Shown here: positions 1 to 6,126 of the stretch, piece by piece
Layout: every line of letters begins with the position of its first letter
How positions within the stretch are numbered: the first letter of the stretch is position 1
IMG/VR virus record: IMGVR_UViG_2703718811_000001
Span: 1-6,126 of that record
Length of the DNA: 6,126 nucleotides
Origin: a virus
Taxonomy: Duplodnaviria; Heunggongvirae; Uroviricota; Caudoviricetes
Reading direction: 5' to 3' (one strand)
The notes under the pieces: generated by a model
Database searches by the model: none
What the model was told of the DNA's origin: nothing
Seen by the model: the letters and a program-made list of their open reading frames with translations, nothing else
Program-made: the position numbers and the translations under genes

Positions 1-104
1 GCAGAAGCAGAAAAAGCTTATTATGCTTCCATCGGAAACAATGATCTGGCAGCCTGAGTTCACAGATAAAACTCTCTCCAGGAAAATCGGGGCGGTTCAA
101 ACTG
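1..104. repeat. Left copy of a 104-bp terminal inverted repeat; pairs with 6020-6123 (102/104 identical, mismatches at 73 and 100)
   Basis: The reverse complement of 6064-6123 equals 1-60 exactly. Alignment continues to position 104, then diverges. The repeat carries the last 14 codons and 3' flank of the outward-facing ORF at 60-335. Confidence 0.85.
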
Positions 105-335
105 CTCAGCGGCTTTTTCCACCCACGGCCTGATATTGCTGTACGGCGGGTTATTCCAGATTGCACCGTGGCTTATCCACTCAGAATTTAGCGCGTCGTC
201 GGCCTCAGTTAACCAGTGAGCGCACAGAGCATTTTTGTCGCTCGCTGCCGAATCCAGCCAGAATCCAAACTCAATACGCTCCTGTTCGGCAAAGTTACCT
301 CTGCCGAAGTTGAGTATTTTTGCTGTATTTGTCAT
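60..335 (-). CDS. Truncated DNA N6-adenine methyltransferase-like protein (phage Dam family N-terminal part, 91 aa); C-terminal 14 aa come from the terminal repeat
   Basis: ORF with SD AGGAG 6 nt upstream of the ATG at 333-335. The protein contains EFGFWLDSAAS, NALC and WNNPPYS (an NPPY catalytic motif), typical of small phage N6-adenine methyltransferases. It stops at about 91 aa, roughly half the length I recall for such enzymes, directly after entering the repeat. Confidence 0.5.
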   Translation of the reverse strand: MTNTAKILNFGRGNFAEQERIEFGFWLDSAASDKNALCAHWLTEADDALNSEWISHGAIWNNPPYSNIRPWVEKAAEQFEPPRFSWREFYL

Positions 336-338
336 AAT
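310..338 (+). promoter_or_regulatory. pO-like promoter for oop RNA (-35 TTGAGT 310-315, -10 CATAAT 333-338, 17-bp spacer)
   Basis: Sigma70-like hexamers sit at the correct distance upstream of the oop-like transcript start near 346. Confidence 0.45.
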
Positions 339-345
339 GACTCCT

Positions 346-421
346 GTGGATTGATCCAGTAATTCCCTCAGAATTGCATATCAATTTGCTTAGAGTCCCC
401 GGCGGCCACCGGGGATTTTTT
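346..421 (+). ncRNA. oop: OOP-like antisense RNA overlapping the 3' end of cII, ending in an intrinsic terminator (stem 397-402/409-414, T-run 416-421)
   Basis: The sequence GTGGATTGATCCAGTAAT...CCCCGGCGGCCACCGGGGATTTTTT closely resembles lambda oop RNA as recalled (GUUGAUAGAUCCAGUAAU...GCCGCCGGGCGUUUUUU). It lies antisense to the cII 3' end and finishes with a GC stem followed by a T-run. Confidence 0.7.
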
Positions 422-664
422 CTTTGTGATTCCATCAAGCGCATACTTAAAAGCCCTACTAATCGGACTGATGTCTGATGCCATTCCGAAAGCACACAAG
501 ACCGAAGCAATAAATCTCCAGTCCGTTCTGCTTATCTTCGATTCATGACAGCCAATCATCTTTGCCAGACCGCGCTGGGTAAGCGTTGACAGGTTGATGA
601 GTAAATCAGTTTCAGCGCGATCAATTTCTCGCTGTGATAGTTTGCTGTAACTTGTTTGTTCCAT
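368..664 (-). CDS. cII: cII-like transcriptional activator (98 aa), diverged from lambda CII
   Basis: Position matches lambda (downstream of cro and nutR). The C-terminus KKKSPVAAGDSKQIDMQF resembles lambda CII KKRPAATERSEQIQMEF, and a central SKISR helix-turn-helix-like segment matches lambda SQISR. Length is 98 aa against 97 in lambda. Confidence 0.85.
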   Translation of the reverse strand: MEQTSYSKLSQREIDRAETDLLINLSTLTQRGLAKMIGCHESKISRTDWRFIASVLCAFGMASDISPISRAFKYALDGITKKKSPVAAGDSKQIDMQF

Positions 665-674
665 TTCTTAAGAT
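642..674 (+). promoter_or_regulatory. pRE-like promoter: CII-binding direct repeat TTGC-N6-TTGT (642-655) inside the first cII codons, putative -10 TAAGAT (669-674)
   Basis: The TTGC(N6)TTGC-type repeat overlaps the 5' end of cII on the opposite strand, as in lambda pRE. It would drive antisense-cro and cI transcription. Confidence 0.45.
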
Positions 675-749
675 TTCCAATAGTGAATAGCTAGTTGAAA
701 GGTATGCGTGGAAACGCATATGGCCTTAGTTGGTCAGATATATTGGGAC

Positions 750-795
750 TCGCTTTGTCAGCGACGTAGGACGAATGTCCATTGTGAAAAGAGCG
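750..795 (-). promoter_or_regulatory. nutR: boxA-like CGCTCTTTT (787-795) and boxB hairpin TCGCTGACAAAGCGA (750-764)
   Basis: On the minus strand, between the cro stop and cII, lies CGCTCTTTT followed by a 5-bp stem and GACAA loop. The boxB matches the P22-type GCGCUGACAAAGCGC rather than lambda GCCCUGAAAAAGGGC. The 22-nt boxA-boxB spacer is longer than in lambda. Confidence 0.6.
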
Positions 796-802
796 GTGTT
801 AC

Positions 803-1003
803 TTATGCAGTTGTTTTTTTGTTACTTGGGAAGGGCTTTATTTCTTCCGCATAAACGCTTCCATCAGCGTTTATAGTTAAAAAAATCTTTCGGCCTGCAT
901 GAATGGCCTTGTTAATCGCGCTTTGATATACGCCGAGATCTTTAGCCGTCTTGGTTTGCCCAAAGCGTATTGCATAATCTTTCAGGGTTATGCGTTGTTC
1001 CAT
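803..1003 (-). CDS. cro: Cro repressor (66 aa), near-identical to lambda Cro
   Basis: [66 protein letters not shown] differs from lambda Cro as recalled at two positions (M12I, V55I). SD AAGGAGG precedes the start. Confidence 0.97.
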
Positions 1004-1026
1004 ACAACCTCCTTAGTACAGGCAAT

Positions 1027-1055
1027 CATTATCACCGCTAGAGGTATAATAGTCA
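1027..1055 (-). promoter_or_regulatory. PR promoter (-35 TTGACT, -10 GATAAT on the minus strand) driving cro-cII
   Basis: The reverse complement of 1027-1055 reads TTGACTATTATACCTCTAGCGGTGATAAT, matching lambda PR architecture. Confidence 0.85.
1030..1046. promoter_or_regulatory. Operator OR1 (TATCACCGCTAGAGGTA), one substitution from lambda OR1
   Basis: 17-bp CI/Cro operator; lambda OR1 as recalled is TATCACCGCCAGAGGTA, so position 10 is C to T here. Confidence 0.85.
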
Positions 1056-1070
1056 ACACGCACGGTGTTA
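1054..1070. promoter_or_regulatory. Operator OR2 (CAACACGCACGGTGTTA), identical to lambda OR2
   Basis: 17-bp operator, reverse complement TAACACCGTGCGTGTTG. Confidence 0.9.
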
Positions 1071-1097
1071 GATATTTATCCCTTGCGGTGATAGATT
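1069..1097 (+). promoter_or_regulatory. PRM promoter (-35 TAGATA 1069-1074, -10 TAGATT 1092-1097); leaderless cI mRNA
   Basis: Hexamers match lambda PRM with 17-bp spacing. The cI ATG at 1104 lies 7 nt after the -10, consistent with a leaderless transcript. Confidence 0.85.
1077..1093. promoter_or_regulatory. Operator OR3 (TATCCCTTGCGGTGATA), identical to lambda OR3
   Basis: 17-bp operator, reverse complement TATCACCGCAAGGGATA. Confidence 0.9.
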
Positions 1098-1100
1098 TAA

Positions 1101-1817
<717 letters not shown>

Positions 1818-1826
1818 GGAGGATAG

Positions 1827-2168
1827 ATGGCGTTCACTGACCTTGAATATCAAGCGGTCAAAAAAGAAGTTCACCAATTCATTGAAAGCATAAGGCCGCC
1901 TGAACATATCCGCAATGAACTGGATATTGTTTATAGCATCAATGACCAAACGATAGATATCGGCGAACAGCGCCCCGTGTGGCAGGGCAACCCAGGTGAA
2001 ACAAACATCCTGCCATCAGCAAGAATCAAGTACATACGTTCTCTGGATAGATGGAAAATCTATTGGATGCGGAAGGATATGAAATGGCATCAGTACAGTA
2101 CTGAACTTTCGCTGACTGATGCGCTTGAGCTTGTGCGTGCTGACCCGGATTGCTGCTTCTTCGGATGA
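1827..2168 (+). CDS. Hypothetical protein (113 aa), first gene of the cluster in the rex position
   Basis: SD GAGGAGG lies 4 nt upstream of the ATG, 9 nt after the cI stop, so it is co-transcribed with cI from PRM/pRE. No recognisable motif. It is not RexA (279 aa in lambda). Confidence 0.7.
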   Translation: MAFTDLEYQAVKKEVHQFIESIRPPEHIRNELDIVYSINDQTIDIGEQRPVWQGNPGETNILPSARIKYIRSLDRWKIYWMRKDMKWHQYSTELSLTDALELVRADPDCCFFG

Positions 2169-2169
2169 G

Positions 2170-2188
2170 TGAAGAGACGTTTGGATGA
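2170..2188 (+). repeat. Direct repeat copy 2: duplicate of the cI 3' terminus (TGAAGAGACGTTTGGATGA), would encode EETFG-stop
   Basis: 18/19 identical to 1799-1817, placed immediately after the stop of the 113-aa ORF. Confidence 0.85.
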
Positions 2189-2238
2189 TGGATGGTCGCA
2201 GAGATGCTCGTAGAGCATACAGCGATGCAGGAGAATTT

Positions 2239-2673
2239 ATGGCACTTAATTTAGAAAGAATATCTTTTATAACCCCATTTGATAGCAGCGAAGAACCCAA
2301 CCAACCGACGCTTAATTTTACATGCAATGAATTTCCTGCGCGGCTATCAATTGATTTCAGGGTTGGTATGATCGGGTTGAAACCAAATTCAAGATATAAT
2401 TTGGGTATTATGGTAATCCCCGCGCACCTAATTATAAAAAAAGGTGAGGAAATTCAATTCCCTGACGGCTCTTCGGAATCAGTTTCACTTTTCATCGATA
2501 CGAAAGATAGCCATTTTGAAACAGGGGTTGGCGGACAGGTAATAGTAACATTGAAAGAAATTAGGGTCCCAGCTAAAGGGCTATATAGTGTTATAGGGAT
2601 ATTGCAAGATAATGAAGACCCTAAAAATGAACTTCATAAAAATGAATCATTTTTCACCGTAGAGCTATTATGA
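2239..2673 (+). CDS. Hypothetical soluble protein (144 aa from the ATG at 2239; in-frame alternative start at 2185 gives 162 aa)
   Basis: SD AGGAGA at 2229-2234 precedes the ATG at 2239, whereas the ATGs at 2185/2188 have no SD and lie inside the duplicated cI terminus. No transmembrane segment. The stop overlaps the next gene's start as ATGA at 2670-2673. Confidence 0.65.
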   Translation: MALNLERISFITPFDSSEEPNQPTLNFTCNEFPARLSIDFRVGMIGLKPNSRYNLGIMVIPAHLIIKKGEEIQFPDGSSESVSLFIDTKDSHFETGVGGQVIVTLKEIRVPAKGLYSVIGILQDNEDPKNELHKNESFFTVELL

Positions 2674-3290
2674 GTGACGACAGTAATTTAAATAATCATG
2701 GAAAGCAAGACACCAACATATCTGAAAGCCGGAGGTTGAAGGTTGTTGGCGGTTCCGATTTTGAGGCTGAATTTGATAATTCTCCCACCAAGGTGCAAAA
2801 TAATTACATAAAACCGCCACAAACGGAGGAAGAAGTGGGAACGATCAGCAGAGAGGAACTTGATGCTCGCTTAGCTGCTAATAAAGCAGAGATGGAGTCT
2901 ATTGCTTCTTCCATTAGGGCTGACATGGCTCTATCTCGTGAAAGCGTTAATGTCCAATTTGCATCACTTAATGCAGCCATAAGCTCTCTATCGTCCAAGA
3001 TCGATGGAAAGATGGATAGCGCTGCTGGCGATATAAAAGCAATTAATGGGAGATTCGAAGGAATTCAAGGACAAATAACAGGGGTTAATACCGCAATTAG
3101 TGGTGTTCAGTCGGGTATTTCTATACGATTAGCCATTTTTAGTGTCATTATCGCTGTAATAGTTGCTATTCCCGGGCTGGTATCAGCTTTAAAGTCAGAC
3201 CACGCACCTTTGCAACAGCCTTCCACTTTGCAAGCGCCGCCACAAAATACCCAGCCAACAGACAACAAAAAAATCACTCCCCAGCATTAA
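2670..3290 (+). CDS. Tail-anchored membrane protein (206 aa): polar N-terminus, long coiled-coil-like region, one C-terminal transmembrane helix, Pro/Gln-rich tail
   Basis: Translationally coupled to the upstream gene. Heptad-like Ala/Ser/Ile/Leu-rich region (ELDARLAANKAEMESIASSIRADMALSRE...), a 21-residue hydrophobic stretch LAIFSVIIAVIVAIPGLVSAL near the C-terminus, then APLQQPSTLQAPPQNTQPTDNKK. It is not RexB (four transmembrane segments in lambda). Confidence 0.75.
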   Translation: MSDDSNLNNHGKQDTNISESRRLKVVGGSDFEAEFDNSPTKVQNNYIKPPQTEEEVGTISREELDARLAANKAEMESIASSIRADMALSRESVNVQFASLNAAISSLSSKIDGKMDSAAGDIKAINGRFEGIQGQITGVNTAISGVQSGISIRLAIFSVIIAVIVAIPGLVSALKSDHAPLQQPSTLQAPPQNTQPTDNKKITPQH

Positions 3291-3298
3291 CGCATTAA

Positions 3299-3320
3299 CC
3301 CGGCCTCAGCGCCGGGTTTT
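3299..3320 (+). terminator. Intrinsic terminator ending the cI-cluster operon (stem CCCGGC/GCCGGG, T-run)
   Basis: CCCGGCCTCAGCGCCGGGTTTT sits 9 nt after the stop at 3290. Confidence 0.7.
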
Positions 3321-3475
3321 CTTTGCCTCACGTTCGCCCACCTAAAAACACATAACCAATTGTATTTATTTGAAAATAAATAGATACAACTCACTAAACA
3401 TCGCAATTCTGATCTCTCGCCCTCCAAAGCAATACCCCAATTCAAAAAATAAATTCATATAAAAAACATACAGAT

Positions 3476-3492
3476 AACCATCTGCGGTGATG
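3476..3492. promoter_or_regulatory. Operator OL3 (reverse complement CATCACCGCAGATGGTT; one mismatch to lambda OL3)
   Basis: 17-bp operator adjacent to OL2 and OL1. The flanking AT-rich sequence 3380-3475 matches the lambda pL upstream region as recalled. Confidence 0.8.
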
Positions 3493-3495
3493 AAT

Positions 3496-3512
3496 TATCT
3501 CTAGCGGTGTTG
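3496..3512. promoter_or_regulatory. Operator OL2 (TATCTCTAGCGGTGTTG; lambda has TATCTCTGGCGGTGTTG)
   Basis: 17-bp operator overlapping the pL -35, with one G to A substitution. Confidence 0.85.
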
Positions 3513-3538
3513 ACATAAATACCACTGGCGGTGATACT
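3510..3538 (+). promoter_or_regulatory. pL promoter (-35 TTGACA 3510-3515, -10 GATACT 3533-3538)
   Basis: Matches lambda pL TTGACATAAATACCACTGGCGGTGATACT with 17-bp spacing. Confidence 0.9.
3520..3536. promoter_or_regulatory. Operator OL1 (TACCACTGGCGGTGATA), identical to lambda OL1
   Basis: 17-bp operator between the pL -35 and -10. Confidence 0.9.
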
Positions 3539-3606
3539 AAACACATCAGCAGGACGCACTACTCACCAGGGCGGTGAATATACAACGATTCGAATATGAA
3601 TCTACG

Positions 3607-3621
3607 GCGCTGACAAAGCGC
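3607..3621 (+). promoter_or_regulatory. nutL boxB hairpin (GCGCTGACAAAGCGC), P22 type; no canonical boxA seen upstream
   Basis: 5-bp GC stem with GACAA loop in the pL leader about 130 nt before N, the same boxB type as nutR at 750-764. Lambda identity ends near 3558, just after the pL start. Confidence 0.65.
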
Positions 3622-3749
3622 AATAACCAAAGTGAACTTTGGGGTGAATGCAGAAGCTAACCTTCTCGGCGGAGGCGCTTTGCAATGATTACGCGACCGG
3701 AGTTAGTCGCCCGGCTGTATTCACCACCAAAGTTCATCAGGAGGTCTAT

Positions 3750-4133
3750 ATGACACGCAGAACTCAGTTCAAAGGCAATTCACGTTCTCGTCGTCGTGAG
3801 CGTTTAAAGGCAAAGGCATTAGCTAACGGCGTACTGGCCCGCGAAGAAGCAATAAGTTCAGAAGTATTACACCGCCCTACTCTAAGCAGAGCGCAGATTC
3901 AGGCTAAAGGTACTCACGAAACGCCTGAGCGCATAGAAGACGCTAAGCCAATTAAGTTCATGGCACAGGACGTGATCTGGCAACAGAAAGAATACAGACG
4001 CAATCTGGAGCGAGCGGCCATTGTGTACGCGAATGAGTTTGGACATAAGCAACCAGAAACTGGTGTATGTCTTCCAAACGTAGCCATTTACGCGGCAGGC
4101 TACCGGAAATCAAAACAACTGACGGCGAGGTGA
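3750..4133 (+). CDS. N: N-type transcription antiterminator (127 aa) with arginine-rich motif, P22 gene 24 / Stx-phage class
   Basis: Strong SD AGGAGG 5 nt before the ATG at 3750. N-terminal arginine-rich motif GNSRSRRRERLKAKA resembles the P22 N motif GNAKTRRHERRRKLA, and the C-terminus LPNVAIYAAGYRKSKQLTAR resembles the P22 N C-terminus as recalled. It is the first gene after pL/nutL, and its boxB type matches. Confidence 0.85.
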   Translation: MTRRTQFKGNSRSRRRERLKAKALANGVLAREEAISSEVLHRPTLSRAQIQAKGTHETPERIEDAKPIKFMAQDVIWQQKEYRRNLERAAIVYANEFGHKQPETGVCLPNVAIYAAGYRKSKQLTAR

Positions 4134-4183
4134 CTTGTGTTGGTCGCCAGAAAATGAAATTAGGCAGCAAACCACTTATTTGA
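4121..4183 (+). pseudogene. Out-of-frame relic of a lambda-type N C-terminus (DGEVTCVGRQKMKLGSKPLI-stop) overlapping the N stop
   Basis: The -1 frame across the N stop encodes GE-VTCVGRQKMKLGSKPLI, which resembles the lambda N C-terminus GERGITCSGRQKIKGKSIPLI as recalled, and ends at TGA 4181-4183. Confidence 0.4.
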
Positions 4184-4191
4184 GGTGAGAT

Positions 4192-4662
4192 ATGACAAAA
4201 TCATGGAGCGTACCTTTTCCTGAATCAGAAACTGAACATGATGGAATGCCTGTTTTCTGGAGATTCCAGGCGACAGTTGAAGAAGATGGGATAAAAATAT
4301 TCGCACTTCAATATATAGCTTTTCATCAGACAGAGCATTATGCATGGTTGGTTCCTGCGCATTGGATTGTTAATTTTAAACCAGCACCAAATCAGTGGTT
4401 ACAGGAATGGAAACAAAGGAGAAATAGATATGCAATTAAGAAAGTAGCAAAAAATGCAGAAAGATCTTTTGCATTCCCAACGAAGAAACTTGCTATTGAA
4501 AGTTTATTGCGCCGGAAGAAATACCATTTAATGAGAATCAAACAAGATTTGGCTGTTGTATCAACTCTTGTTGATGGGATGAAGAATATTGATACATCAA
4601 CACCAGATATTGAATATAACTTTGGACACAACCAAGAAACAGAAAACTGGGTATTTTATTAG
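4192..4662 (+). CDS. Hypothetical protein (156 aa) in the position of ral/sieB
   Basis: SD GAGGTGAG precedes the ATG at 4192. Basic, Trp-rich, no transmembrane segment. No resemblance to lambda Ral (66 aa). Confidence 0.7.
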   Translation: MTKSWSVPFPESETEHDGMPVFWRFQATVEEDGIKIFALQYIAFHQTEHYAWLVPAHWIVNFKPAPNQWLQEWKQRRNRYAIKKVAKNAERSFAFPTKKLAIESLLRRKKYHLMRIKQDLAVVSTLVDGMKNIDTSTPDIEYNFGHNQETENWVFY

Positions 4663-4676
4663 TACGAATAAGCACT

Positions 4677-4704
4677 GTGTATTCATTCCAACGAGTGAAT
4701 ACAC
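4677..4704 (+). other. Hairpin (9-bp stem GTGTATTCA/TGAATACAC, 10-nt loop) in the intergenic region; possible RNA processing or attenuation structure
   Basis: Perfect inverted repeat seen in the sequence, with no T-run after it. Confidence 0.4.
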
Positions 4705-4766
4705 GGAGCAATGTCGCTCGTAACTAAACAGGAGCCGACTTGTTCTGATTGTTGGAAATCTTCTTT

Positions 4767-4792
4767 GCCCTCCAATGTGAGGGCGATTTTTT
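4767..4792 (+). terminator. Intrinsic terminator (stem GCCCTC/GAGGGC, T-run 4787-4792), tL2-like position
   Basis: GCCCTCCAATGTGAGGGCGATTTTTT between the 156-aa ORF and the next gene. Read-through would require N antitermination. Confidence 0.65.
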
Positions 4793-4812
4793 ATCTATGA
4801 GGATATGAATAG

Positions 4813-5181
4813 ATGTCAAACATCAAAAAATACATCATTGATTACGACTGGAAAGCATCAATAGAAATTGAAATCGACCATGACCTAATGACAGAGGAAA
4901 AACTTCACCAGATTAATAATTTCTGGTCAGACTCTGAATACCGACTCAATAAACACGGCGCTGTATTAAATGCTGTATTAATCATGCTGGCGCAACATGC
5001 TCTGCTTATAGCAATTTCAAAAGACCTAAATGCATATGGTGTTGTTTGTGAGTTCGACTGGAATGATGGAAATGGTCAGGAAGGATGGCCTCCAATGGAT
5101 GGTAGCGAAGGAATAAGAATTACCGATATCGATACATCAGGAATATTTGATTCAGATGATATGACTATCAAGGCCGACTAA
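4813..5181 (+). CDS. Hypothetical acidic protein (122 aa), Ea10-like by position and size
   Basis: It lies between N and cIII, where lambda has ea10, which I recall as also 122 codons. The sequence itself is not recognised. SD GAGGA lies upstream. Confidence 0.6.
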   Translation: MSNIKKYIIDYDWKASIEIEIDHDLMTEEKLHQINNFWSDSEYRLNKHGAVLNAVLIMLAQHALLIAISKDLNAYGVVCEFDWNDGNGQEGWPPMDGSEGIRITDIDTSGIFDSDDMTIKAD

Positions 5182-5256
5182 GTGCGGCTTTACCGCATAC
5201 CAATAATGTTTCACTCGAGGCGTTTTCGTTATGCAATCAAATATAAGGAGTTACCC

Positions 5257-5391
5257 ATGATGCACTTTCAGCTCGCGGGTAGCGGCGTCATGTCCGCTTT
5301 CTACCCGCACGAATCTGAATTATCACGACGAGTTAAACAATTAATCAGAGCAGCAAAGAAACAACTGGAGGCGTTATGCGCAATGAAATAG
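5257..5391 (+). CDS. cIII: cIII-like protein (44 aa; FtsH inhibitor family)
   Basis: SD AAGGAG 6 nt before the ATG at 5257. The segment QLAGSGVMSAFYPHESELSRRVKQLIRAAKKQLEAL resembles the lambda CIII core AIAGWPVAGCPSESLLERITRKLRDGWKRLIDIL. The long ORF-track start at 5182 lacks an SD. Confidence 0.7.
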   Translation: MMHFQLAGSGVMSAFYPHESELSRRVKQLIRAAKKQLEALCAMK

Positions 5392-5528
5392 CCATCAATC
5401 ACCAGATGCTTCGTGCGGCACAAAACAAAGCAGTAATAGCTCGATTTATTGGTGATTCCAAAATGTGGCTTGAAGCAAATAAAGCGATGAAATCAGCTAT
5501 CAACCTTCCGTGGTATCGCAGGAAATGA
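5376..5528 (+). CDS. kil: Kil-like small protein (50 aa), overlapping the cIII 3' end
   Basis: SD GGAGG precedes the ATG at 5376. It overlaps the cIII-like gene by 16 bp, as kil overlaps cIII in lambda. The motif ARFIGDSKMW resembles lambda Kil (ATFIGDEKMF) as recalled from memory. It falls below the ORF-track length cutoff. Confidence 0.5.
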   Translation: MRNEIAINHQMLRAAQNKAVIARFIGDSKMWLEANKAMKSAINLPWYRRK

Positions 5529-5632
5529 GTTTTACAGATAACTGGTCAGACGAAGAATTCATTCGTCAGATGAAAGAAATGCTCAATCAGCACAAAGAAC
5601 AGGAGAAAGATGATGATTCTGACTCTGAATGA
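5525..5632 (+). CDS. Possible small acidic ORF (35 aa), ATGA-coupled to the kil-like gene
   Basis: ATG at 5525-5527 overlaps the upstream TGA at 5526-5528. No strong SD, and it overlaps the next gene by 23 bp. Confidence 0.25.
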   Translation: MSFTDNWSDEEFIRQMKEMLNQHKEQEKDDDSDSE

Positions 5633-5921
5633 TAAGCGTGAAATATCGCAAATCATCGCAAGTTTTACCGATGATGATTACGAACGAATCAACAGTGAAG
5701 TTGATCGCCTCTGCAAACGTTGCGACCCAATAAGCGAAATGCTTCGCTCATATAAACCAGATGAACACACTAAGGACGCTATCGACTGGCTGGAAGATGA
5801 TGACTGTAACTATCAGGAAAAAGCCGCTGAATGGTTCTGGGATGCAATAACCGAAAGAGTTAAGGCTGAATATGCCTTCGCAATATTCAAACGCAGACAT
5901 ATTTATGGAGAAGCTGCATGA
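5610..5921 (+). CDS. Hypothetical acidic protein (103 aa)
   Basis: SD AGGAG at 5601-5605 precedes the ATG at 5610. It occupies the region where lambda has gam, but the sequence is unrelated to Gam as recalled. Confidence 0.65.
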   Translation: MMILTLNDKREISQIIASFTDDDYERINSEVDRLCKRCDPISEMLRSYKPDEHTKDAIDWLEDDDCNYQEKAAEWFWDAITERVKAEYAFAIFKRRHIYGEAA

Positions 5922-6064
5922 GCAATATCGTTGAATTCGTTAAACAGCAGGAGCAGTTATTCTGCGGAGCATTGACTGAACAGACGGTGACATGGGCTAA
6001 GGAAAGCCAGTTTGCAATTCAGTATGAACCGCCCCGATTTTCCTGGAGAGTGTTTTATCTGTGA
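5918..6064 (+). CDS. Short ORF (48 aa) whose last 14 codons and 3' flank form the right terminal inverted repeat
   Basis: ATG overlaps the upstream stop (ATGA at 5918-5921), with SD GGAG 7 nt upstream. It ends YEPPRFSWRVFYL, nearly the same as the C-terminus of the ORF at 60-335 (FEPPRFSWREFYL). Confidence 0.4.
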   Translation: MSNIVEFVKQQEQLFCGALTEQTVTWAKESQFAIQYEPPRFSWRVFYL

Positions 6065-6123
6065 ACTCAGGCTGCCAGATCATTGTTTCCGATGGAAGCA
6101 TAATAAGCTTTTTCTGCTTCTGC
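6020..6123. repeat. Right copy of the 104-bp terminal inverted repeat (pairs with 1-104)
   Basis: Reverse-complement identity with 1-104 at 102/104 positions. Confidence 0.85.
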
Positions 6124-6126
6124 CGG

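Follow-up and report, generated by a model that had tools for sequence, protein, structure and literature searches.

What is the short open reading frame (ORF) of 91 amino acids (aa) that lies directly downstream of cII in this DNA, where the sequence-only reading had placed a truncated methyltransferase gene standing in for the lambda replication gene O? The DNA analysed here (the window) is 6,126 bases long and is the entire contig LOIL01000110.1 of the draft assembly GCA_001607685.1, rather than an excerpt from it; the contig has been recorded in two samples. We put the probability at about 93% that the ORF is a chimeric pseudogene (O'-'dam', interrupted by an insertion sequence, IS) in a defective lambdoid prophage of Escherichia coli, made by two independent events.

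According to the ORF and Pfam calls, the gene content of the window is that of a lambdoid immunity region. The cII gene (368-664, minus strand) matches Pfam Phage_CII (E = 4e-32), and cro (803-1003, minus strand) matches Pfam Cro (E = 8e-34); on the plus strand there are a gene for a cI-type repressor (1104-1817; Pfam HTH_3 and Peptidase_S24), N (3750-4133), and cIII/kil (about 5258-5528). Judged by these genes, the prophage remnant probably retains the immunity functions of cI, cro, cII, N, cIII and kil. Its intact counterpart is a prophage of E. coli OkiPb01678 (NZ_AP042495.1), which adjoins yecN/cmoA/cmoB, and with which window 275-6025 is colinear, with one mismatch in 5,751 bp. An identity of 99.98% to this prophage suggests that the source host, too, was E. 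coli. The sole mismatch, T vs C, is at window 5441, in the kil ORF (5376-5528); as this is the only difference over 5,751 bases, the prophage of the source strain is nearly identical to that of OkiPb01678, an Okinawan bovine isolate.

The 91-aa ORF (60-335, minus strand) starts with ATG and comprises residues 1-20 of O, residues 27-84 of Dam and a 13-residue tail derived from an IS; this make-up, what each part is and where the breakpoints lie are matters of direct observation. The motifs that suggested a methyltransferase (FGFWLDSAAS at aa 23-32, NALC at 35-38 and WNNPPYS at 60-66) all lie in its middle part. A profile search confirmed the family, i.e., the ORF matches Pfam PF05869 (Dam) with E = 5.3e-21 and a score of 75.5 bits, vs a gathering cut-off of 28.1 bits. 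The match is truncated at both ends and covers positions 24-83 of the 169 in the profile, with ORF residues 21-79; the intact relative, a protein of 175 aa, covers profile positions 1-167. The full domain has about 169 positions in about 175 aa; the ORF holds a fragment of such a gene and does not count as a protein of the family. The catalytic (D/N)PPY motif is present, as NNPPYS at ORF residues 61-66. In all, 58 of the 175 residues of Dam are left, and the ORF has neither the conserved N-terminal segment (DKDCWQTP) nor the C-terminal region of about 90 residues. With about two thirds of the Dam domain missing, the 91-aa product is probably inactive as a methyltransferase, despite the NPPY.

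The internal dam fragment occupies window 101-276 (minus strand); of the 175 codons it has 27-84 in full, preceded by the third base of codon 26 and followed by the first base of codon 85. These 176 nt are 100% identical to dam of OkiPb01678 (locus L003, 6001-6176), the product of which is WP_000153270.1, and the identity includes the codons for NPPY; the identity to dam/ORF32 of the Stx1 phage BP-4795 is 96%. In comparison with a dam gene in its usual place, the copy in the window lacks 26 codons at its N-terminal end, where a deletion has removed them, and 91 at its C-terminal end, where an IS cuts them off; it also adjoins cII, whereas dam in the nin region is situated between ninB and ninE.

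The beginning of the ORF has a different source. Residues 1-20 (MTNTAKILNFGRGNFAEQER) are the N-terminus of a lambda-type O, and the corresponding DNA at 275-335 (minus strand; the first 20 codons plus 1 nt) is colinear with the O start of loci L003 and L004 and identical, together with the sequence upstream of it, to O of the intact relative. Thus, the ORF uses the ribosome-binding site and the start codon of O. A Pfam search of the 91 aa gave no match to PF04492 (Phage_rep_O); that domain corresponds to residues 22-115 of intact O, and lies wholly inside the deleted interval. The N-terminal 75 aa had been taken as methyltransferase-like, which holds for aa 21-78/79 and fails for aa 1-20. A methyltransferase gene in place of O is therefore not what the locus contains, as the first 20 codons of O still head the ORF and are accompanied by what we take to be the promoter and terminator of oop.

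An oop-like antisense unit is found beside the junction by consensus scan (310-421, plus strand). It has a promoter-like site, TTGAGT-17-CATAAT, at 310-338 (plus strand) within the 61-nt remnant of O, followed by a strong hairpin at 392-419 with a T-run next to it. Presumably, these correspond to lambda pO and oop, in which case oop has been retained beside the O remnant. In an Rfam scan of the window, no family, oop included, reached its gathering score.

Where O and dam meet can be located to the base. In DNA searches the region splits at window 272-276: to the right, the matches are annotated as cII plus replication protein, with identities of up to 99.8%, and to the left as phage N-6-adenine-methyltransferase, with identities of up to 100%. 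In OkiPb01678 the gene order, as annotated in RefSeq, is cI, cro, cII, O, P, ren, DUF7301, ninB, dam, ninE; the order is the same in the Stx1 phage BP-4795, which has extra genes between ren and ninB. Base-by-base comparison with OkiPb01678 revealed that the match colinear with O extends down to window 275 and the match colinear with dam extends up to 276, so that the two overlap by 2 bp, TA. The comparator has 2,814 bp that are missing from the window, i.e., O codons 21-300, P, ren, the DUF7301 gene, ninB and dam codons 1-26, and codon 20 of O is joined in frame to codon 27 of dam.

With this block went the means of replication. The Phage_rep_O domain, the ori iterons and the C-terminal, P-binding part of O are all deleted; three lambda-type ori iterons are present in the part of the comparator that is missing here (L003, 8617-8700; 0.03 expected by chance), and none was found within the 6,126 bases of the window. 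Beyond the first 20 codons of O, the ORF and Pfam calls gave no O or P replication gene in the window. The sequence-only reading was thus correct in finding no replication module here, and the origin is missing as well. Because O, P and ori have been lost, the prophage remnant would be unable to replicate after induction.

The other end of the ORF is of yet another origin. After Q84 of Dam, the ORF reads F, then EPPRFSWREFYL and a stop, out of the inverted repeat of an IS; the stop codon (60-62) falls within the terminal repeat arm (1-99), as had been noted from the sequence alone. In each of the two arms, the coding sequence for the final 18-19 residues of a transposase (AEAEKAYYASIGNNDLAA*) precedes a stretch of 42 nt that has GGGGCGGTTCA at its end. 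The left arm (1-99, plus strand) is the right end of one IS copy, copy A, with the last 18 transposase codons, a stop at 55-57 and the inverted repeat ending in GGGGCGGTTCA at 99; the right arm (6025-6126, minus strand) is the right end of copy B, and is the same end inverted. Because one base differs between them (73 vs 6051), the arms belong to two separate IS copies, both of which point their right end at the phage segment, in opposite orientations.

The arm sequence is 99% identical to the ends of IS3-family transposase genes in E. coli. Of 5,426 complete E. coli genomes, about 4,000 have it, often many times over, under the annotation IS3-family or IS1203-family transposase. A full copy (locus L007, 791-2099) has 1,309 bp, the ends TGAACCGCCCC...GGGGCGGTTCA and a frameshifted transposase with HTH_Tnp_1 and rve domains; over its last 99 bases it does not differ from the right arm of the window. 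The features expected of the IS3 family, i.e., terminal inverted repeats with TG...CA ends and a transposase with a C-terminal rve domain, encoded up to about 45 bp from the end, are all present: the arms end in GGTTCA, the transposase stop is situated 42 nt before the end, and the inverted repeats of the full copy match. The element resembles IS629/IS1203 in its ends, its length of about 1.31 kb, its two-ORF transposase with programmed frameshift and its rve domain, and close relatives are named "IS3-like element IS1203 family transposase" in RefSeq. However, its ends are about 94-97% identical to those of copies labelled IS1203, vs 99-100% to copies labelled only "IS3 family transposase". 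A contig that ends inside a multicopy IS at both ends is an outcome of short-read assembly. Thus, the terminal inverted repeat of the contig is due to two IS insertions and breakage of the assembly about 100 bp into a multicopy IS, and does not consist of rearranged phage DNA. The contig stops 99-102 bp into each of the two copies, so that their far sides lie outside the window.

Copy B has cut a second gene, that of a RecT-family recombinase. The first 36 of its 300 codons are found at 5918-6025 (plus strand) and are 100% identical to recT of OkiPb01678, the intact product of which matches Pfam RecT. The resulting 48-aa ORF (5918-6064) consists of RecT residues 1-36 and EPPRFSWRVFYL, which is read from the IS. 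The dam and recT ORFs therefore have in common a 12-residue tail from the IS, with one substitution between them; because two genes that are not related have both acquired this accidental tail, these C-termini are meaningless. A related IS3-family element interrupts the homologous recT of E. coli M15 (NZ_CP185789.1; locus L005, 3419-5634) at another codon and in the same orientation, and the end of that element is about 94-95% identical to the IS of the window, i.e., recT in this type of prophage has been struck by IS629-like elements more than once.

The following events account for the locus. An illegitimate deletion of 2,814 bp at the 2-bp TA microhomology fused codon 20 of O in frame to codon 27 of dam; lost in it were the remainder of O, ori iterons included, the genes P, ren, DUF7301 and ninB, and the beginning of dam. 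An IS3-family element resembling IS629/IS1203 was inserted at codon 85 of dam, so that translation from the O start runs 12 codons into the IS and stops there. Across the immunity region, recT was cut at codon 36 by another copy of this IS, oriented the other way. The draft assembly broke within both IS copies, giving the contig its apparent terminal inverted repeats. The deletion and the IS insertion are two independent lesions, 176 bp apart. At the DNA level, the OkiPb01678 comparator accounts for every base except one, window 100, which is A on the plus strand and belongs neither to the IS end nor to intact dam, where the comparator has C. The parental allele may have had a single nucleotide polymorphism at this point (Cys85, TGC to TTC), or the base may have been added during the insertion.

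In the sequence-only reading, the ORF had been called a fusion or pseudogene, which is borne out by the joining of O codons 1-20 to a dam fragment cut by an IS; the fusion had also been attributed to the same rearrangement as the repeats, and this part has to be given up. A single rearrangement (e.g. an inversion or duplication of phage DNA) that produced both the repeats and the truncated methyltransferase might be suspected from the end of the ORF inside a repeat and from the two arms being inverted copies, but the arms are the end of a ubiquitous IS3-family element rather than phage DNA, the fusion results from a separate 2,814-bp deletion with its own microhomology, the junction of which is 176 bp from the IS end, and the DNA between the IS ends is colinear with the intact prophage save for that one deletion. 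Even if an inversion of the whole segment between the two IS copies did occur, it would leave the fusion unexplained, and a common origin is therefore extremely improbable. Two narrower variants were also considered. Deletion adjacent to the IS was rejected as the cause of the fusion, due to the distance of 176 bp, and replicative intramolecular inversion as the source of the inverted IS copies is not supported, given that the order of the intact prophage is preserved between the copies and that each copy has the same one of its two ends facing inward.

It could also be asked whether the join of O to dam exists at all, or whether pieces of prophage were wrongly joined in the draft assembly. 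The junction has been found in one draft contig and nowhere else that was searched. Against an artefact, the two sides of the junction share only 2 bp, far less than the overlap or k-mer length of an assembler; they consist of unique, perfectly matching phage sequence; the contig with the join was recorded in 2 samples; and an independent deletion of the same block of genes in another phage (see below) indicates that such deletions occur. Misassembly is thus very unlikely. There is hardly any room for the idea that the short ORF is a functional gene under selection, be it a mosaic mini-methyltransferase or a regulatory peptide derived from O. The deletion is in frame, and the ribosome-binding site and start codon of O have been kept, as has the NPPY motif; but an in-frame join is expected by chance in 1 of 3 cases, 58 of 175 Dam residues remain, with the N-terminal DKDCWQTP and the C-terminal 90 residues gone, and the last 12 residues come from chance reading into an inverted repeat of the IS and recur, with one substitution, on the cut recT ORF. 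Furthermore, the 91-aa form does not recur in any collection that was searched, and it was not seen conserved in diverged lineages.

The chimeric pseudogene appears to be confined to its source. The exact 30-mer across the junction is absent from the GTDB species representatives and from the JGI metagenome contigs, and in a megablast search of 5,426 complete E. coli genomes with a 121-nt junction query, no record covered 80% or more of the query. The exact 91-aa protein is on record from contig LOIL01000110.1 only. Thus, the join of O to dam is private to this assembly. Escherichia phage EC.P3 (PQ657771.1) was considered as a possible sharer of the join, as a single BLAST piece spans it, but its breakpoint is different at the level of single bases. 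In EC.P3, as in the window, the block from O to ninB is missing and dam sequence follows immediately after cII; however, the EC.P3 breakpoint consists of the cII stop, GGG and dam codon 2, with no O remnant, oop or IS, and its flanks are about 90% identical to those of the window. The deletion in EC.P3 is an independent event. The record of EC.P3 is a circular one of 33 kb, labelled as complete; at its breakpoint (locus L001, 1240-1280) dam is left without a start codon, and cII is not followed by a replication module of the lambda type.

In terms of annotation, the ORF at 60-335 should be entered as an IS-interrupted pseudogene (O'-'dam' fusion) and not as a methyltransferase, and the terminal inverted repeats of the contig should not be regarded as a biological structure of the phage. 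Beyond annotation the significance is small. In the genomes of enterohaemorrhagic E. coli (EHEC), small structural polymorphisms and the decay of prophages are mainly due to IS629/IS1203, and the disabling of lambdoid prophages by deletion and by insertions of the IS629 type is a familiar process, both in EHEC and in other E. coli. The fusion with its truncation by an IS is an event of this already known kind, i.e., ordinary prophage decay; what the locus provides is a base-resolved example, in which a microhomology deletion of the replication module is combined with IS629-type insertions.

A gene for a DUF3024 protein (1827-2168, plus strand) lies directly after cI, in the position of rexAB. 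The protein matches, over its full length, the PADLOC candidate defence family PDC-S43 (E = 7e-42). Downstream of it are two ORFs, at 2185-2673 and 2670-3290 (162 and 206 aa), with no significant family match; the 206-aa ORF has a sub-threshold Pfam match only, and a hydrophobic segment close to its C-terminus. The DUF3024 gene and the two ORFs that follow it may be an exclusion or defence cassette of the prophage, co-expressed with the repressor. It is a much larger step, and a very doubtful one, to propose that the whole 5.9-kb block bracketed by the IS copies (cI/cro/cII/N/cIII/kil and the DUF3024 gene) is a composite immunity and defence cassette, either in its behaviour or because it has been retained, and not random debris. 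If that were true, the loss of O, P and ori would be a selected step of domestication, leaving a remnant that cannot be induced to replicate.

Some smaller features of the IS joins can be added. Both joins between IS and target read CAGT-N-TGAACC (window 95-104 and 6020-6030), with CAGT on the native target sequence: the join in dam is GAGCAGT-T-TGAACC and that in recT is TTCAGT-A-TGAACC, so that the inverted repeat looks 5 nt longer than the IS. Repeat detection accordingly gives arms of 104 nt, in which 4 of the 5 bases beyond the IS agree. That CAGT occurs at both joins could point to a preferred target of this IS, or could be a coincidence, the odds of which are about 1 in 256 at a fixed offset. 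The repeat also gives rise to a pair of mirror ORFs, at 23-133 (plus strand) and 5997-6101 (minus strand), of 36 and 34 aa (MLPSETMIWQPEFTDKTLSRKIGAV), which lie mostly in the IS arms and reach shortly into phage DNA; these are by-products of the repeat, not genes.
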